From: a virus
UHGV virus genome: UHGV-0095065
Reading direction: 5' to 3' (one strand)
DNA length: 21,484 nt
The notes under the pieces: model-generated
Told to the model about the DNA's origin: nothing
Seen by the model: the letters and a program-made list of their open reading frames with translations, nothing else
Database searches by the model: none
Part shown: piece by piece, positions 3,624 through 16,538 of the stretch
Numbering within the stretch: position 1 is the stretch's first letter
Layout: each line of letters starts with the position of its first letter
Translations under genes and position numbers: made by a program

Positions 3624-5648
3624 TCAGGCCACCGACGAACGCACCAGTCCGCGCCAGTCAAGCGGTGCCACACCGGCATCAATACGAATTTTTGTGGCAA
3701 TGCCGTCAGTGGTGAAACCTTCCTGCTGATCAATGTATGGCGTGTCCACGCCATCCAGCCAGGCCACTTCAATGGTGTCAGTGCCCTGTGCCGCCGCCAG
3801 ATACCAGGTTTTCGGATCTGCCGCATCAAGACGCGCTTCTGCAATCACCTCAGCAAAGTTCTGGATGGGGTTAATGACACCGGCGTTTGCATCCGCCCCT
3901 TTCACACTGGCCGATTTGATGGTCTGGTTCGCCACCGTCTCCAGTGCCACCGGTACCAGCATAAAGGCCGGACGGATATTCAGGGCGCGATCGCTTTCTT
4001 TCTGCAGGCGCATCATCTGACGGGCCGCATCCAGTCCGGAAACGGAGATCCCCCCGGTGGCAATATTTTTGTGATCGGCATGGAACAGCGCCTTACCGTC
4101 GGACAGTTTCGGGTTATCCGTCAGCACCTTGTAGACCAGGTCACCAATCGTTGCCTTCGCCGCACGCCCCATCTTCATCGGCACGTCCACCAGCATATTC
4201 AGATCATCATTGATAATGGCCTGGCGGGTGATGGAGAAAATCTCCCCGTAAGTGGCCAGTGCAATGGTCTCCTTGCGATCTGAGGTGGTGATGTATTTAT
4301 ACTCCGCCCCCTCACGAACCTGGCGCAGAGAACCAAAACCGCCCATCCCCACGCGATACGCTGTTTTGAAGTCTGACAGGCGTCCCTTACGGGTCCACTT
4401 CTGGAAGGTTTCTTCTGATTCCTCCCAGCCCTGGATCAGCCCCTTGTTCGACACATCCAGCAGAATATTGCCAAAATCAGAGGTGCTGTGCGTCAGCGCC
4501 AGCCCGACCATCTGCATGGGGTTATAACTGGCCACCCCAATACCGCGCTCCGTCAGTGACATGCGAGCCCATTCACGCAGGGTCATCCCGTTATAGGCGT
4601 TATCCTTCTCGACATTTTCAAATCCGGCACGGGCCAGCATCGCCTGGCGGATCCCGTCTCCCACAAAATTGCCGTTTCCGGCATAAATATGGGCCGGTGT
4701 GTTTTTGTTGGTCGGCGAGGACTCCTTGCCCATTTCATTCAGCAGACGTTCACGGGCCATTTCCAGCGAACAGTCAGGATCAGCCACGCACTGTGCCTGA
4801 AGCGTCTGATAGCGACCGCCGAACATGGCAAACAGATCGTTAATGCCTGACATGCGTGCTTTCTGCTCAGCCATAACGCGGGCGCGAATGGTCGCCTCAT
4901 CAGACACTGCCGGTACCGGTGATGGTTCTGTTACCGCCGGTGCAGGGATTGTCACTGTGGTATCACGCGGGGCACTGTTGCGTGGCGGAGTAATCATGTT
5001 TCGGATGGATTCCGGCATCTTTTTAAATTCCTCTGTACGTTTTGACTGAATACATGCCATTGCCTCAACAGCGGGTGTCACCTGGTCAGCAAATCCGTGT
5101 GCCAGACATTCGGCACCGGACATCCAGGTTTCATCCGCCAGCATGGCGGCAATTTCATCGGTGGTTTTTCCGGTTTTCTGCGCATAGGCTGGCAACAGTA
5201 CCGATTCGACTTTATCCAGCAAATCGGCATAACTGCGCATATCCTCAGCATTCCCGCCACTGAATCCCCATGGCTTATGGATCATCATGAAGGCATTTTC
5301 CGGCATAATGACCGTATCACCGGCCATCGCAATCACAGATGCCATCGAGGCGGCAACGCCATCCACATACACGGTAATGGTCGCCCCCTGATTTTTCAGG
5401 GCATTAAAAATGGCGATGCCTTCAAAGACATCGCCACCCGGTGAATTGATATGGAGATTAATGTGGGTGATATCACCCAGTGCATTCAGTTCTCTGACAA
5501 ACTGCTTCGCGGTAACTCCCCAGAAACCAATCTCGTCATAAATATAAATATCCGCATCACCCGGCCCCCCAGCCTGCATCCTGAACCAGGATTTATTCTT
5601 CATGCTGGCTTTCGGTGTCGCGCTGATACTGTCGTTCAGTTCCGGCAC
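3624..5648 (-). CDS. Prohead protease (ClpP/S49-like) fused to HK97-fold major capsid protein
   Basis: N-terminal part (...INSPGGDVFEGIAIFNALKN...VASMASVIAMAGD...) looks like a ClpP/S49 serine protease; the long C-terminal part looks like a major capsid domain. Start placed at GTG 5648 (AAGGAGG 5 nt upstream); ATG at 5603 is an alternative. The track ORF extends to 5795 but overlaps the portal gene. Confidence 0.8.
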   Translation of the reverse strand: MPELNDSISATPKASMKNKSWFRMQAGGPGDADIYIYDEIGFWGVTAKQFVRELNALGDITHINLHINSPGGDVFEGIAIFNALKNQGATITVYVDGVAASMASVIAMAGDTVIMPENAFMMIHKPWGFSGGNAEDMRSYADLLDKVESVLLPAYAQKTGKTTDEIAAMLADETWMSGAECLAHGFADQVTPAVEAMACIQSKRTEEFKKMPESIRNMITPPRNSAPRDTTVTIPAPAVTEPSPVPAVSDEATIRARVMAEQKARMSGINDLFAMFGGRYQTLQAQCVADPDCSLEMARERLLNEMGKESSPTNKNTPAHIYAGNGNFVGDGIRQAMLARAGFENVEKDNAYNGMTLREWARMSLTERGIGVASYNPMQMVGLALTHSTSDFGNILLDVSNKGLIQGWEESEETFQKWTRKGRLSDFKTAYRVGMGGFGSLRQVREGAEYKYITTSDRKETIALATYGEIFSITRQAIINDDLNMLVDVPMKMGRAAKATIGDLVYKVLTDNPKLSDGKALFHADHKNIATGGISVSGLDAARQMMRLQKESDRALNIRPAFMLVPVALETVANQTIKSASVKGADANAGVINPIQNFAEVIAEARLDAADPKTWYLAAAQGTDTIEVAWLDGVDTPYIDQQEGFTTDGIATKIRIDAGVAPLDWRGLVRSSVA

Positions 5649-10567: not shown

Positions 10568-11053
10568 CTAGTTAATACACTGAGTGCGGATATATTCCTG
10601 CGCCCCTTCCAGCTGCTTCTGCATTGTCATCAACCGTTCTCTGAGGATGAAATAATCCCGTTCAGCGGTGTCTGCCAGTCGGGGGCCGGTTGCATTATCC
10701 ACGCCGGAGGTGCCGGTGGCTTCACGCACGGTACCGTGGCAGGTGGCGTTGATCCGCAGGCGCTTACGACCAGCGGCAACGTCAGCGCGAAGAGTTTCAT
10801 TTTCAGCTCTCGCATCGGCTAATTCCCTCGAGTATTTTGCATCGAGCGCAGCAACATCACGCTGGCGCACCTGCATGTCAGTAATGGTGGCATTCGCCTG
10901 TTCCAGCTCTCTGGCTTTTTTATCGCGCTGCGCTTTGTAGGTGATGGCGTTATCGCGGTAATGATTAACAGCCCATAACAGACAGACGATGATGCAGATA
11001 ACCAGAGCGTAAATAATCGCGGTTACTCTTCTCACTGATCTATCCCCCAACAA
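10568..11053 (-). CDS. Spanin, inner membrane subunit (Rz)
   Basis: 161 aa with N-terminal TM segment ([18 protein letters not shown]) then charged coiled-coil-like region; overlaps the endolysin 3' end; contains embedded Rz1 in +1 frame. Confidence 0.85.
10630..10800 (-). CDS. Spanin, outer membrane lipoprotein subunit (Rz1), embedded within Rz
   Basis: [15 protein letters not shown] lipobox followed by Pro-rich sequence ([16 protein letters not shown]); entirely inside the Rz ORF in another frame. Confidence 0.8.
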
Positions 11054-11577
11054 GCTAATGCGCTTTCCTGGTCACGACGAATAACCTGTCCGTAGCAGTT
11101 ATTTGAACGTGTGCGGCAATCACGCCCACCGTCCTTAATCCACCAGCGAATCGACTCACAGGCACCTTTACGATCACCGGCATTAAGCCGCTTATAAAAC
11201 GTCGACGGGAGACACTTACCGGGGCCAATGTTATACGGGCAGAATGACGCAATACCCGCTTTCTGGGGTTCGGTCAGTGGTACTTTGATGTTTTTCTCCA
11301 CCCATGCCAGCGCCTTATCCCGTTCGATAGCGTTAACCCGGTCGCATTTTTCCTTCGACAGCTTCATGCCAGGAATCACAGGCTTACCATCCACCCGGGT
11401 GGCTCCACGGCAGATGGTCCAGATACCCGCACCATCACGGTATGCCGTGGTGTGGTTGCCTTCTTTTTCATCCAGAAACTGGTCGAGGATTTCAGGCGCA
11501 GAAGCACCTGCGGCAATCAGCGCCAGAACGGCAGCCGATAAACCATAGCGGAGTTTCCTGCTCATCAGCTTACTCAC
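11032..11577 (-). CDS. SAR endolysin (phage 21 R-type lysozyme, GH24)
   Basis: 181 aa; N-terminal weakly hydrophobic Gly/Ala-rich SAR segment [19 protein letters not shown], then E...D...T catalytic pattern ([20 protein letters not shown]) typical of T4/P21-type lysozymes. Confidence 0.95.
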
Positions 11578-11785
11578 CCCGTGCCGTCTTACGCCGGTCC
11601 TCTCTGATTTTGAAATACAGGTTCGTCAGATATGTCAGCAGACCAAACAGCAGACTCCCCAGCACGCCTATTGCCGCCCACTGAGACGGGGAAACCCTGT
11701 CCAGCAACTGCAGGAACCAGTAGCCCGTTCCCACCGCTGACGTGGTGTATGACACACCTGTTGTGATTTTTTCCATCTGGTACAT
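11570..11785 (-). CDS. Pinholin (phage 21 S-type holin) with dual-start motif
   Basis: 71 aa [71 protein letters not shown]; two Met codons (M1, M4) give the holin/antiholin dual start; GGAG RBS; overlaps endolysin start. Confidence 0.9.
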
Positions 11786-11817
11786 ACCCCGTCTCCCGCA
11801 ATCCGGAAGCTCACAAC

Positions 11818-11850
11818 AATAAAAAAGACCACCGGCACACACCGATGGTC
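11818..11850 (-). terminator. Intrinsic terminator immediately upstream of the lysis cassette
   Basis: Minus-strand RNA forms a 9-bp stem (one G-U pair) with 6-nt loop followed by UUUUUUAUU; on the plus strand the same pair is a C-A mismatch, so the element is strand-specific. Confidence 0.6.
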
Positions 11851-11862
11851 CCTGACGCATGC

Positions 11863-12478: not shown

Positions 12479-14425
12479 TCATGCCGCGGCGTCCGCGTTA
12501 TTCACTTCCACCGTAATGCTGTCTATCAGTACCGGGTAAGTCGCACCTTTGGTAATGTCTGTCACATGCAGTTTATCCGCCGCAAAGGCACTGACCGGTG
12601 ACTGCGTCAGCGTGAACGGTGTGCCATCCTGACCATCAAGAACCGGCGTCACCTGAAGGCTGTTATTCCCGGCAAAGCGGAAGGCCAGCGTATGCCATTC
12701 GTTATCAAATGCGCCAAAGCTTCCCAGCTTCAGGTTGTTTGTCGCCACTTTCGCATTGTGGTACATCACATTCAGGTCTTTTGCATCCGTCTGGATGTAG
12801 AACGCTGCCAGCAGGTTATTCCCCCCATCGCCGGTCAGGGCAACGCCCTGTGGCAGTGAAGATACCGGCCAGTAAAACGCCATAACATACTGGTTCGCCG
12901 CCAGCGCTCCCGAAGCCTTAAAGCGGCAGCGAATCTGCCCCCCTTTCTGTAACAGAGCCGCGCCGTTGCCCGCAGCGTACTCCAGCACCCAGGTGCTTTT
13001 ACCGGCTTCCTTGGTCAGCTTCACAGCCTTACCTCCGGTTCCCTCCGCATCGCTGACCACTTCTGCCCTGCCGCCACTGGCTGACCATCCCTGTGCTTTC
13101 AGGCTTCCCTCTGACTCGCTGGCAAGGTAAGAGAGCAGTGTTGTGACGCCTGTGACTTCTGCACCGGAAGGCGATGACGGGCGCACTTCTGATACTGTCG
13201 ATGATGCCCCCGCGTTTAGCGCCACTCTTCCCGCATGGCGCAGAATCGCCGTTGCCAGACGGTCGGAAATAATCGCGCGGCGAGCCCATGAACTGAAATG
13301 GCTCTCCCTGTCCTGTGACGTCCAGGTGGCTGAGCTGTCACGCCATTTCGAACCGTAATACCCGATACCCGGAATGTCCGGGTCTTCTTCCGGTTTGTTC
13401 GTCGGCACATTCACCCCGTTCTCATCCGTCATGAACGGTACGAAATGGATATTCTTTTCCGTTTTGTTTTTATAGCTGCCGTACACCGTCTGGTACGTGG
13501 ATTCGTTCTTCTGCTTCCAGAAATACGTCGTGTCCCCGCATATCCAGGGAACACCGCCAGCAGAGCCACCAACGCACTGGCCTGCCATATCCGTCAGGTC
13601 TGCACGGAATTTATCAACCAGCGCACCAAACTGTGCTGCGTGATTTCCGGGCGTGCCGCCAAAATCAAATTCCCCCTGCATCCACACCACGGCAAACAGC
13701 ACATTTTTCGGGTTCTTCTTCAGTGCTGCTTTTGTTCGACCGATAAGGTCCTTATACAGCGGCTTGTCCACACCCCAGCGGGTTGAATTCTCCGAGGCAC
13801 CACTCGCATCACTGTATGTGCCATCGGCTCCGGTGGTGAACGCAGAGCCACCACGGCAGCAAGGTACCAGCAGAATGCCCGCATTCGCCGGTATAAACGG
13901 CAGCAGTTTTTTGGCGATATGCAGCCCCTGCCCCACGGTTCCGTACTGCCCCTTTGACAGATCCGCTTTCGGATGGTTAAGGCGGCTCATGTCCTGCACA
14001 TCATGCAGACAATGGTCCGCCGGAATGATGTCGTTATATCTGCATGCTGCACCACCCGGTGTCACCGTACTGCGACGCGCCAACTGCTTAATACGCGGCT
14101 CCGGACGGTCATATGTCTCCGGCAGCGGAAGACCTTCACCATACGACATGCCGTTTGACTGCCCTGCCAGAACCACAACAAAGTAATACTCCGGGTCGCT
14201 GGTGGCACTGATTACTGCACCTTCTCCACCTGTCGGCTTCACCACAACAGGTGTGCTCACATCACCTTCTGCGACAATCGCCTGAATAAGTGCTGCGCCA
14301 TCATCCGTATACGAAGAAAACGGCCCACCGTATGGTTGCCATCCTTCACGAATTTTTTGCGCAAGTGCATCAGCAAGGTCTGACGGCGATGCCGTCCTGA
14401 CCACATCGTAATGTTTAAATGTCAT
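12479..14425 (-). CDS. nanS-p: Prophage sialate O-acetylesterase (NanS-p-like; SGNH/SASA domain)
   Basis: 648 aa; RBS GGGAGGA; internal VVVLAGQSNGMSYGEG contains the GQSN(M) SGNH-hydrolase motif; size and position (downstream of the stx-equivalent locus, upstream of lysis genes) match the NanS-p esterases of Stx prophages. Confidence 0.8.
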   Translation of the reverse strand: MTFKHYDVVRTASPSDLADALAQKIREGWQPYGGPFSSYTDDGAALIQAIVAEGDVSTPVVVKPTGGEGAVISATSDPEYYFVVVLAGQSNGMSYGEGLPLPETYDRPEPRIKQLARRSTVTPGGAACRYNDIIPADHCLHDVQDMSRLNHPKADLSKGQYGTVGQGLHIAKKLLPFIPANAGILLVPCCRGGSAFTTGADGTYSDASGASENSTRWGVDKPLYKDLIGRTKAALKKNPKNVLFAVVWMQGEFDFGGTPGNHAAQFGALVDKFRADLTDMAGQCVGGSAGGVPWICGDTTYFWKQKNESTYQTVYGSYKNKTEKNIHFVPFMTDENGVNVPTNKPEEDPDIPGIGYYGSKWRDSSATWTSQDRESHFSSWARRAIISDRLATAILRHAGRVALNAGASSTVSEVRPSSPSGAEVTGVTTLLSYLASESEGSLKAQGWSASGGRAEVVSDAEGTGGKAVKLTKEAGKSTWVLEYAAGNGAALLQKGGQIRCRFKASGALAANQYVMAFYWPVSSLPQGVALTGDGGNNLLAAFYIQTDAKDLNVMYHNAKVATNNLKLGSFGAFDNEWHTLAFRFAGNNSLQVTPVLDGQDGTPFTLTQSPVSAFAADKLHVTDITKGATYPVLIDSITVEVNNADAAA

Positions 14426-14679: not shown

Positions 14680-15075
14680 TTCGCTACGTGTCTGTTAGCC
14701 ATATGCATGGTGCCGGGTGCCTCCCGGTGAGTTCAGTATCAGCACCTGAACCCGCACAGAAAGGATAGAGTAGAAACACCTGCGCTGATATGCCCCTCCG
14801 CTCAGGGGGATTCACCATGCCAGTTTCTTTTAACAAACTCCCCGCAAACCAGACAACTGTCAACCGTCTGAATTGTGAGACATTTAAAATTTTCAGGGCA
14901 TGACTGATACCCGGCTAACTACCTGACATCTCCTTTTTCACCAAAGGAAAAAGCACCACCACAATACCGACCACCAGCACTCCATCCGCCAGCACCGACA
15001 TGATCCTGCTGGTGAAGTCCACCATCACCACCAGAAACAGCAGGAGTGCCACAGCGGCCAGACGCAGTTTTACCG

Positions 15076-15507
15076 TCACAGGTGGTTCTCCAGTCGCAGG
15101 CCAAGAACACCGGCGATCTCTTCCAGAACCTTACGCTCTTCCGGCTCAATTTCACCATCTGCTTCAGCAATGGCCACCGCCACATCCAGCACATCTTCCG
15201 CTTCACGCGTATCGTGTTTCACATCTTCAATTTCACGCAACGCCGCTCGACGACCAATTTTAAAGTTGGTGTCAAGCTGACCTGTGATCGTGGCACTGAT
15301 GGCATTAATTTCTGACGTAAACGCGGACAACGCAGGCTGGTTACGCAAGACCTGCTCGATCTTCGCTTTCTCTGAAGCCTCACATTCACCATCTGCATAG
15401 GCCACCAGATAGGCAGCATTAATAACCGCCTGTGCCAGATCACGTTTCTCAAACTTTTTAATTTCCGCTGCTGCTCTGCGGGTTTTCTTTTTGAAAATAC
15501 CAAACAT
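15076..15507 (-). CDS. TerB-like (tellurite-resistance TerB domain) protein
   Basis: Start at ATG 15507 (AGGAA 7 nt upstream): MFGIFKKKTRRAAAEIKK...AAYLVAYADGECEASEKAKIEQVL...DVAVAIAEADGEIEPEERKVLEEIAGVLGL; repeated ADG-E helix pattern typical of TerB fold. The track ORF start at 15579 is probably too far upstream. Confidence 0.65.
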   Translation of the reverse strand: MFGIFKKKTRRAAAEIKKFEKRDLAQAVINAAYLVAYADGECEASEKAKIEQVLRNQPALSAFTSEINAISATITGQLDTNFKIGRRAALREIEDVKHDTREAEDVLDVAVAIAEADGEIEPEERKVLEEIAGVLGLRLENHL

Positions 15508-15637
15508 CGTGACGTTCCTTTGGGTGGGTGAGCCAACGCCCGGGAGCGATCTGCCCACAGAGAAAGTCACACTGACCACTCCGTAAGCTCACCCCCGAAA
15601 GGCTCTGTGGTTGATATGCGCCGGGCGTGGCGCGGAT

Positions 15638-15663
15638 ACAAAAAAGACCCGCAAAAGCGAGCC
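15638..15663 (-). repeat. 26-bp direct repeat copy A (terminator-like), downstream of the moron gene
   Basis: ACAAAAAAGACCCGCAAAAGCGAGCC; 24/26 identical to copy B; on minus-strand RNA forms GCUCGC-UUUU-GCGGGU (with G-U pairs) followed by CUUUUUUGU. Confidence 0.55.
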
Positions 15664-15683
15664 ATAACATCAAAAAATAACTA

Positions 15684-16205
15684 TTATCCTGAGAACTTCT
15701 GATCCGCAATGAAGCGAATCATCATGCTCTTAATATATTCAGACGCTTCTACGTATCGTTCAGCCTCTTCACCTTTGGAAACATATAACTCAGCTCGTTT
15801 ATCACTTCTGAAGTTGGAAAGCGACATCCCTATTTTTATAAGGTCATCGCAATACTCCATAGTTATATATGCTGGCACAAACATATTTCCCGTCGGAGTT
15901 TCATTAATTAATGTACATATTCTGAACTCAATCACACCATCCTTATTCATCCCAAGACATGAGGGTGAACATTCCTCATACCTTCCGCTCTCGGTCATCC
16001 GCTCGATCCTGACCAATCGCTCCATATCCAGCGCAGAGCTTTCACCACTAAGCGAACACGCATAACACTTCTTCAGAAGTTTAACTTCCCGCCTCAGGGA
16101 ATCATGAACACGCGCGTTATGCCTTCTCATCTCATCATATGCATGTTGAATATCACTATACGTAATCACCGAACGGACCTCCGGAAGCGACTGAAAAATA
16201 AACAT
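15684..16205 (-). CDS. Hypothetical protein, AT-rich moron (174 aa); CxxC...CxxxC cysteine pattern; function unknown
   Basis: Start ATG 16205 with strong SD GGAAGGAGGT; MFIFQSLPEVRSVITYSDIQ...KKCYACSLSG...EECSPSCLG...; coding region visibly AT-rich compared with its GC-richer flanks (judged by eye); occupies the position where Stx phages carry stxAB. Confidence 0.75.
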   Translation of the reverse strand: MFIFQSLPEVRSVITYSDIQHAYDEMRRHNARVHDSLRREVKLLKKCYACSLSGESSALDMERLVRIERMTESGRYEECSPSCLGMNKDGVIEFRICTLINETPTGNMFVPAYITMEYCDDLIKIGMSLSNFRSDKRAELYVSKGEEAERYVEASEYIKSMMIRFIADQKFSG

Positions 16206-16246
16206 TCTATACCTCCTTCCAGAAAGAGTCATGTCCTGGTCACGAC

Positions 16247-16272
16247 ACAAAAAAATCCCGCAAAAGCGAGCC
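16247..16272 (-). repeat. 26-bp direct repeat copy B (terminator-like), between tRNA-Arg(UCU) and the moron gene
   Basis: ACAAAAAAATCCCGCAAAAGCGAGCC; same hairpin plus U-tract on minus-strand RNA as copy A. Confidence 0.55.
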
Positions 16273-16286
16273 CGGGAAAATAAGTG

Positions 16287-16363
16287 TGGCGCGTTGTACT
16301 GGATTCGAACCAGTGACCGATTGCTTAGAAGGCAATTGCTCTGTCCGGCTGAGCTAACAACGC
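16287..16363 (-). tRNA. argO: tRNA-Arg (anticodon UCU), argO-like
   Basis: Minus-strand GCGTTGTTAGCTCAGCCGGACAGAGCAATTGCCTTCTAAGCAATCGGTCACTGGTTCGAATCCAGTACAACGCGCCA; cloverleaf with T-loop GGTTCGAATCC, anticodon loop CTTCTAA, encoded CCA. Confidence 0.9.
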
Positions 16364-16376
16364 TGAATACCGATAA

Positions 16377-16453
16377 TGGACCGCCATCGAGGACTCGAAC
16401 CCCGCGCAGCCAGCTTCGAAGGCTGGCGCTCTATCCCGATGAGCTAATGGCGG
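16377..16453 (-). tRNA. argN: tRNA-Arg (anticodon UCG), argN-like
   Basis: Minus-strand CCGCCATTAGCTCATCGGGATAGAGCGCCAGCCTTCGAAGCTGGCTGCGCGGGGTTCGAGTCCTCGATGGCGGTCCA; anticodon loop CTTCGAA; full 7-bp acceptor stem (C1-G72). Confidence 0.85.
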
Positions 16454-16462
16454 TATGTGATA

Positions 16463-16538
16463 TGGTGGCCCTTGCTGGATTTGAACCAGCGACCTGGCGA
16501 TTATGAGTCGCTCGCTCTCACCACTGAGCTAAAGGGCC
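16463..16538 (-). tRNA. ileZ: tRNA-Ile2 (anticodon CAU, lysidine type; Met by anticodon alone), ileZ-like
   Basis: Minus-strand GGCCCTTTAGCTCAGTGGTGAGAGCGAGCGACTCATAATCGCCAGGTCGCTGGTTCAAATCCAGCAAGGGCCACCA; very similar to E. coli ileX/ileY tRNA as recalled. Confidence 0.85.

Follow-up and report, generated by a model that had tools for sequence, protein, structure and literature searches.

Q-dependent terminator read-through is the established mode of expression of the stx genes in Shiga toxin (Stx)-converting phages (PMC8065619). The gene order in one such phage, Stx2_12E129_yecE (LC567842), runs from Q through a 65-amino-acid (aa) open reading frame (ORF), a methylase and the same three tRNA genes as in the locus described here to a 90-bp spacer, stx2A, stx2B, another 510 bp and yjhS/nanS-p. 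Phage P1 provides a second point of reference, with tciA-tciB-tciC annotated beside tRNA genes and their functions given "by homology". Here, we report an analysis of the virus genome UHGV-0095065 (21,484 nucleotides, studied at full length and denoted the window), in which the position of stx is taken by a single AT-rich gene, ORF173, and a gene pair encoding a TerB-domain protein and a small DUF3927 peptide. Our preferred interpretation, to which we assign a probability of about 0.6, is that this locus is the late cargo hot-spot of an Stx-phage-like lambdoid prophage, in which ORF173 is a moron, that is, a single extra gene, read through from the late promoter pR', and its product acts inside the cell.

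The segment 12400-19100 of the window matches 358 phage records, mostly of Stx-converting phages, with identity of up to 96%. Its flanks are 94-96% identical to those of Stx2a phages, where stx2A and stx2B sit between the same tRNA genes and nanS-p. The three-tRNA cluster (CAT, Arg-TCG, Arg-TCT) is also found in Stx2 phages L004 and L005, and phage Stx2_EH1910 (LC567834) has the same quuQ-type Q ahead of stx2. In pairwise BLAST comparison with an Stx2 phage, homology breaks on the left at window position 16249-16244, just past the hairpin after the last tRNA, and on the right at 14882, where the region of the small RNA (sRNA) STnc100 starts. No stx genes are present, and positions 16243-14883 have no counterpart in the Stx2 phage L004 except for a 35-bp hairpin repeat. 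With Q upstream on the same strand, the three tRNAs, and nanS-p and the lysis cassette downstream, the cargo slot of UHGV-0095065 is, judged from these alignments, the stx slot, though the phage is not Stx-converting. A sequence-only reading of this DNA, made before any database search, had recognized the stx position from the order of Q, tRNAs, cargo, NanS-p and lysis genes and had reported that Shiga toxin genes are missing from it; both observations are borne out. The coordinates it gave were correct, whereas the DUF3927 gene, the STnc100 sRNA, the methyltransferase and the 65-aa ORF had escaped it. The features of the region, every one of them on the minus strand, are as follows.

20503..19415, minus strand: DUF968 protein
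19402..19028, minus strand: RusA
18210..19031, minus strand: Q late antiterminator, 273 aa (PF03589, E=5e-52), with a DnaJ-like zinc-finger region
18112..18205, minus strand: candidate pR' (TTGATT-16 nt-TAAATT, promoter assigned by eye) and candidate tR' hairpins
18176-18160 and 18129-18112, minus strand: two terminator-like hairpin plus T-run sites (candidate tR') from a hairpin scan
17788..17985, minus strand: 65-aa ORF with weak winged-helix similarity (phrog_331, function unknown)
16579..17637, minus strand: N6/N4 DNA methyltransferase, 352 aa (PF01555, E=7e-44)
16538..16463, minus strand: tRNA-CAT (the identical gene is tRNA-Ile in RefSeq)
16453..16377, minus strand: tRNA-Arg(TCG)
16363..16287, minus strand: tRNA-Arg(TCT)
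16244..16272, minus strand: R1, upstream 29-nt terminator-like hairpin copy, the resident hairpin after the tRNAs in empty sites and Stx2 phages
15684..16205, minus strand: ORF173, predicted soluble alpha+beta protein of PHROG 5091, a rare AT-rich moron
15635..15663, minus strand: R2, downstream hairpin copy, the terminator-like 3' end of the moron itself, directly after which the TerB leader resumes
15076..15507, minus strand: TerB-domain protein of the TciA type, 143 aa (PF05099)
14915..15079, minus strand: DUF3927/TciB-like hydrophobic 54-aa peptide (PF13064), its GTG start overlapping the TerB stop codon
14649..14849, minus strand: STnc100 sRNA, PasD-related (Rfam RF02076, 147 bits against a gathering score of 47)
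12479..14425, minus strand: NanS-p-type sialate O-acetylesterase, 648 aa (DUF1737+SASA+DUF6645)
between NanS-p and the holin, minus strand: DUF1378 and DUF826
10568..11860, minus strand: lysis cassette with P21-type holin, lysozyme and Rz
further downstream, beyond the lysis cassette: terminase and portal genes

Comparison with empty sites delimits the inserted DNA. In strain FORC_043, as in many other strains, TerB comes right after the tRNAs and only one hairpin copy separates them; junction alignment gives the resident unit as tRNA flank, GGCTCGCTTTTGCGGGCC, TTTTTTGTATC, TerB leader. Relative to this empty site, the left flank of the window stops at 16244 and the right flank restarts at 15663, and the 29-nt hairpin sequence, which occurs once in the empty site, occurs twice in the window. 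The two copies, R1 and R2, form a direct repeat (90% identical, 609 bp apart), and both scan as a hairpin plus T-run, in agreement with the original description of the gene as bracketed by terminator-like repeats. The 16-mer core of the repeat occurs 2 times, compared with 0.03 occurrences expected by chance, and R2 shows a 7-bp stem followed by TTTTTT at 15663-15646 (a consensus match only). On this alignment, the ORF173 cassette is a single-gene insertion of about 609 bp between the last tRNA gene and tciA, made up of a leader of about 40 nt that carries a strong Shine-Dalgarno sequence, then the 173-aa ORF, then a terminator-like hairpin of its own. Because the insert is placed exactly behind the resident hairpin, copies of one and the same hairpin seem to flank the cassette on both sides.

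Three kinds of cargo, namely ORF173, the two ORFs of strain CFIAFB20190167 and stx2AB, start directly past TTTTTTGT(A/G)TC, and the ORF173 and two-ORF cassettes each end in their own hairpin variant, followed by the same TerB leader. The loops of these variants are TTTT, TTCG, TACG or TATTG, and the stems vary with compensating changes (hairpin copies lie at 4328-4360 and ~4927 of L003, 2363-2397 of L004, 8520-8541 of L012 and ~640-670 of L013). That the cassettes end in variant copies of the same hairpin suggests that they are terminator-delimited. An integron attC-like reading of the repeats was rejected, having neither a recombinase nor other support; the repeats are accounted for by homologous or short-homology recombination, at the hairpin as well as in the flanks.

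The ORF at 16205..15684 comprises 522 nt, that is, 173 aa and a stop codon, so that its coordinates stand as first given and its length of 174 aa does not. AGGAGG is located 6 nt upstream of the ATG, and the GC content is 0.425 against 0.533 for the window, within the lowest 0.4% of 522-bp windows, confirming both the strong Shine-Dalgarno sequence and the AT-richness noted at the outset. The ratio of nonsynonymous to synonymous substitution rates (dN/dS) is 0.14 and 0.19 between the window ORF173 and homologues of 73% and 68% identity, with dS of about 1, and 0.08 between these two homologues themselves. The close family comprises seven 90%-identity clusters spanning 62-100% identity, and those with a source name come from Escherichia coli. 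By these measures, ORF173 is a real gene under purifying selection.

The gene is also rare. It was detected in four of 5,426 complete E. coli genomes, along with one partial divergent copy; a representative-protein profile search returned 17 hits among 1.84 billion; a locus search with the close alignment gave one locus per collection; and neither ORF173 nor two distant relatives had a tblastn match in 50,697 phage genomes (INPHARED, GenBank records). One representative hit, P0012, is a 1,828-aa BNR-repeat protein and was discarded as spurious. All 522 nt of ORF173 are identical in five other loci, namely GE3, MBT-5, AUSMDU00014361, an IMG/VR contig and a metagenome bin. Comparison with MBT-5 and AUSMDU00014361 delimits an invariant tract that extends from ~16313, inside the last tRNA, to ~15500, at the TerB start; beyond it, the TerB and tRNA flanks are 5-14% different. 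An identical tract within divergent flanks implies that the cassette moved recently, by recombination in the conserved flanks. The only differences within the tract are at 15647 in the downstream hairpin, where the window differs by one base from all five other ORF173-carrying loci, and at 16270 in the upstream hairpin, where MBT-5 and AUSMDU00014361 differ from the window. TerB has an internal stop codon in MBT-5 (L002 6335-9882) and AUSMDU00014361 (L007 5189-6319), and MBT-5 also has frameshifts in NanS-p, a DNA-packaging protein and the large terminase; in both of these decaying prophages, ORF173 is intact.

A survey of the slot across prophages, as envisaged in the sequence-only reading, shows several states. 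Among 120 IMG/VR loci listed that carry the hairpin core, a sample biased by the exact-match seed, the slot was empty in ~39, held stx2AB in ~20, TerB-DUF3927 in ~11, two small ORFs plus TerB-DUF3927 in ~9 and an antisense iraM-like gene in ~9, and consisted of ~950 bp without long ORFs in ~11; the rest ended too near the hairpin for scoring. The iraM-like gene encodes 111 aa (phrog_4407, GC 0.38; for example L024, with 875 bp from hairpin to nanS-p), and the ~950-bp slots without a long ORF might carry further sRNA copies. The STnc100 region also follows stx2B in Stx2 phages and, for this reason, marks the right edge of the cargo slot; STnc100 has been grouped with prophage PasD sRNAs (2026 preprint). 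The 65-aa ORF sits between the putative tR' and the methyltransferase, a position that is kept in Stx2 phages, and its counterpart in Xenorhabdus prophages is a 66-aa ORF.

By profile match, ORF173 belongs to PHROG 5091, a catalogued family, and is a further cargo type in a known hot-spot. The phrog_5091 hidden Markov model aligns to ORF173 with E=5.3e-9 (residues 13-172 on profile positions 2-161 of 164) and is matched by 23/23 aligned members, with a best E=2e-39; its annotation is "unknown function", and ORF173 itself is already in RefSeq as WP_032185421.1, "hypothetical protein". The initial impression of a protein with no recognizable domain holds for Pfam, NCBIfam and PADLOC, although the family is catalogued: scans of ORF173 and 20-23 relatives returned nothing beyond phrog_5091, with 0 PADLOC hits for ORF173 and only chance-level ones for its relatives. 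A literature search on the protein accessions and phrog_5091 found nothing functional, and no already-characterized module, which the sequence-only reading had allowed for, emerged for ORF173.

Family members among the representative hits are full-length, at 149-183 aa, and occur in four host groups; the hosts are E. coli, Photorhabdus, Xenorhabdus and the host of a P22-like prophage. In a Photorhabdus lambdoid prophage, the homologue is placed between Q and the holin, and in the P22-like prophage it comes after HicAB and before the holin. In Xenorhabdus miraniensis, the order is Q, 66-aa ORF, N6/N4 methyltransferase, Tad2-like gene, homologue and holin, and in another Xenorhabdus prophage it is Q, GNAT acetyltransferase, 66-aa ORF, methyltransferase, homologue and holin. 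Two Xenorhabdus myovirus-like prophages (X. bovienii and X. griffiniae) have it in the tail operon, just before the tape-measure gene, where a GhoS-like gene is also found, and an HK97-like E. coli phage with the 68% homologue has the order ORF, TerB, DUF3927, holin. In every context examined, the gene points the same way as the late genes, and no partner gene accompanies it throughout. As far as these loci go, PHROG 5091 is a sparse, phage-restricted family found in late-operon accessory hot-spots of temperate phages. The X. miraniensis homologue (L014 7153-8522) directly follows the Tad2-like gene (PF11195), which may mark a counter-defence-type gene cluster.

In four distant loci, as in the window, a terminator-like hairpin with a T-run precedes the ATG by 45-60 nt, and a similar hairpin is located just past the stop codon in four loci. 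The positions in distant loci are L008 7935-7959, L014 7936-7957, L021 7937-7956, L022 7919-7944 and 8720-8741, L011 8499-8517 and L020 8498-8517, and in Photorhabdus, Xenorhabdus and the P22-like prophage, these hairpins are present whatever the neighbouring gene is. The hairpins are alike among loci, and generic terminator features may explain part of the likeness.

Similarity and structure-prediction searches, proposed at the outset for both proteins, confirmed TerB and gave for ORF173 the phrog_5091 match and a confident model, but no significant fold match. The AlphaFold2 model, built from a 23-sequence alignment, has a predicted local distance difference test score (pLDDT) of 87.5 and a predicted template modelling score (pTM) of 0.81; an earlier model from 8 close sequences (pLDDT 55) was not used. 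A helix spans residues 16-51 of the model, followed by an antiparallel sheet of six strands (65-143) and a second helix (148-170). ORF173 was found to have neither a signal peptide nor a membrane segment, the maximum 19-residue hydropathy is <=1.3 across the family and the isoelectric point is mildly acidic (4.7-6.2); by these features, the product would be a soluble, cytoplasmic alpha+beta protein. Only I14, S51, L52 and K159 are invariant across the family, and no catalytic signature was recognized in ORF173. Foldseek searches against PDB and BFVD gave nothing significant, and the sole hit of a PDB sequence profile search (E=0.09) is noise, which together point to a fold without a close solved relative. 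Structural resemblance was seen to the FP domains of PI31 and Fbxo7 (figures 6.9 and 6.5), about 10 CesT-type secretion chaperones (4.6-6.0) and YbjN-like proteins (~4.5-5.5), such that the predicted fold weakly resembles small dimeric protein-binding modules. A role as a CesT-like class I chaperone of a type III secretion system was rejected, with no such system or effector in the context and no membership in the sequence family. An intracellular, protein-binding accessory role is what the model suggests for ORF173, with low confidence.

The promoter-like motif and two hairpins downstream of Q match a pR'/tR' arrangement and are candidates for these elements; TTGATT-16-TAAATT was picked by inspection only, and a consensus promoter scan did not return it. 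A sigma-70 consensus scan upstream of ORF173 found no usable promoter, and the sole promoter-like match, at 16232-16204, was rejected, its -10 element overlapping the ATG. Given the lack of a recognizable promoter and the terminator-like hairpin 45-60 nt upstream of the ATG in the window, ORF173 would be transcribed mainly by Q-modified polymerase from pR'. We therefore infer that it is expressed mainly by Q read-through from pR' after induction, like stx2, so that the early proposal of expression from pR' only on prophage induction is plausible. Several observations weigh against the interpretation as a whole. The absence of a promoter rests on a simple consensus scan, and a TAAAAT-like motif that could be a -10 element is common to the Photorhabdus and Xenorhabdus leaders, ~15 nt before the Shine-Dalgarno sequence. 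The R1 and R2 hairpins are modest, with 5-7 bp stems that include G-U pairs and folding z-scores of -1.0 and -1.5, and may not terminate efficiently. Homology gives ORF173 no function, and the hot-spot neighbours (HicAB, GhoS-like, Tad2-like, GNAT acetyltransferase) are mixed and point in no clear direction.

A competing reading is that ORF173 serves lysogenic conversion or defence, for example by superinfection exclusion or abortive infection; the repressed prophage would then express it and the lysogen would be protected against other phages. Classic morons are often expressed in the lysogen and beneficial to the host (PMC8065619), and the cassette is AT-rich with its own 3' terminator; HicAB and GhoS-like genes are neighbours in homologous hot-spots, and the TAAAAT-like motif is kept in the Photorhabdus and Xenorhabdus leaders. 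The intact and identical state of ORF173 in two decaying prophages hints at a host benefit independent of phage production, although very recent transfer would explain it as well. Nevertheless, the E. coli copy has no detected sigma-70 promoter, several lineages have a terminator-like hairpin immediately before the gene, the gene always runs in the direction of the late operon, and no member matched PADLOC models at a meaningful E-value. We consider a lysogen-protecting gene unlikely on balance, while regarding it as the strongest competitor of late expression by read-through.

The neighbouring TerB and DUF3927 genes both match known families. TerB matches PF05099 at 61.2 bits (cut-off 24.4), phrog_632 at E=2e-69 and the solved TerB structure PDB 2jxu at E=1e-7; the DUF3927 peptide matches PF13064 at 58.8 bits and phrog_1470, has a maximum 19-residue hydropathy of 2.74 and is annotated in RefSeq. 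Among 5,426 complete E. coli genomes, 807 carry the pair, in 2,727 copies altogether. The TerB-like gene recognized in the sequence-only reading is thus real, whereas its standing as special cargo is not upheld: judging from these counts, the pair is an ordinary, common and already known occupant of the slot, of the tciA/tciB type. The tellurite, colicin and cell-division functions of the TciA/TciB type are assigned by homology only, and a literature search on TciA/TciB found nothing functional. Genes of this type adjoin tRNA clusters in P1 (L016, 69348-71008), phage JLK-2012 (L017, 23402-24396) and the window (14915-16538); the tRNAs beside them in JLK-2012 are different ones (Asn, Thr and Gly), and the TerB-tRNA linkage recurs.

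In all E. coli loci with a known downstream gene (the window, GE3, MBT-5, AUSMDU00014361 and the IMG/VR contig), and including the 68% homologue in the unrelated HK97-like phage, TerB-DUF3927 directly follows the gene, which might indicate that the TciA/TciB module has ORF173 as an optional third member, acting with both proteins at the membrane. This adjacency is, however, explained by insertion at the hairpin upstream of tciA, and there are ~2,700 E. coli copies of TerB-DUF3927 without ORF173. Furthermore, the Photorhabdus, Xenorhabdus and P22-like homologues have no TerB neighbour, and an unrelated 206-aa gene comes after the 73% homologue (L012). ORF173 was also rejected as an equivalent of TciC, which in P1 is an unrelated 35-aa peptide. 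Membership of ORF173 in the module accordingly seems improbable.

Less probable still is an Stx-like virulence toxin that is made on induction, released by lysis and acts on eukaryotic cells. Its transcriptional position is that of stx2AB in closely related phages, and lysis releases cytoplasmic contents. However, ORF173 has no detected signal peptide or membrane segment and no domain or fold match to the A subunits of ribosome-inactivating proteins (RIP), AB5/B-pentamers or other toxin families. The gene is carried by isolates obtained from human faeces, fresh water and salad leaves and by prophages of nematode symbionts, and the X. bovienii and X. griffiniae copies are in tail operons. The toxin analogy drawn from the stx position is weakened by a soluble product with no signal peptide and a fold that looks non-enzymatic, and an exported toxin is unlikely. 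Finally, although ORF173 is AT-rich and has no Pfam or NCBIfam domain, the idea that the open frame arose by chance, or that it is what remains of a known gene (a fragment or pseudogene, as the sequence-only reading had considered), is refuted by dN/dS of 0.08-0.19 at dS near 1, full-length homologues of 149-183 aa in four host groups, the full-length PHROG profile match, a strong Shine-Dalgarno sequence before the ATG and a confident AlphaFold model.

Returning to the late cargo hot-spot read through from pR', we propose the following scheme. The resident filling of the slot is the widespread tciA/tciB-type pair, TerB with the small DUF3927 membrane peptide, and the single-gene ORF173 moron has been added between the last tRNA and tciA, right behind the resident hairpin. 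The cassette spreads among prophages by recombination in the conserved flanks. On induction, Q-modified, terminator-resistant RNA polymerase from pR' would produce the ORF173 transcript, as for stx2, and the product may bind a host or phage protein within the induced cell as an accessory host-takeover, counter-defence or lysis-phase factor. A broader and rather doubtful extension is that PHROG 5091 is a new, late-expressed effector class of small dimeric inhibitors with a previously unsolved fold, which neutralize a late-acting host function or defence or are packaged for the next infection, and which are encoded in hairpin-bounded mini-cassettes recombining between the late operons of unrelated temperate phages, with the conserved terminator-like hairpins serving as the joints.

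The tRNA-to-nanS-p slot of lambdoid prophages is of medical importance, since it delivers Shiga toxin, and its other cargo shows how exchange works and that the slot is open to more than virulence toxins. The 609-bp cassette is a clean, small case of recent moron transfer with defined hairpin junctions, and PHROG 5091 is a tractable family, being phage-restricted, under purifying selection and equipped with a confident structural model. The present evidence shows no health-relevant or mechanistically new activity for ORF173.

Set against its family, ORF173 is a full-length member of PHROG 5091 with no difference. Its likeness to CesT/SycE-type type III secretion chaperones, the PI31/Fbxo7 FP domains and CapZ subunits is one of structure only, at 4-19% identity, and unlike those modules, it has two long terminal helices and six strands. 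Compared with the tciA-tciB(-tciC) locus of P1, the window has a TerB-like protein that is 42-52% identical to P1 TciA, with an overlapping DUF3927/TciB-like gene next to it and tRNA genes adjoining; in contrast to P1, there is no TciC equivalent.

Like classic morons (PMC8065619), ORF173 is one added gene, set between genes that neighbour each other in related phages (breakpoints 16244 and 15663), of deviant base composition, with its own 3' hairpin and T-run, in the late region. Whereas classic morons are promoter-gene-terminator units, ORF173 has no recognizable promoter, and a terminator-like hairpin lies directly upstream; by its sequence features, the cassette is a moron in all respects but a promoter of its own. 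With the stx2AB locus, the window shares the whole backbone of Q, 65-aa ORF, methyltransferase, three tRNAs, hairpin, cargo, STnc100, nanS-p and lysis genes, and the stx cargo likewise begins ~50 nt past the same hairpin. The cargo itself differs, being ORF173, TerB and DUF3927 in place of stx2A/stx2B; ORF173 has neither a signal peptide nor a toxin domain, and the stx cassette does not have the second hairpin copy. The window locus resembles the stx locus in its position and in its predicted regulation.

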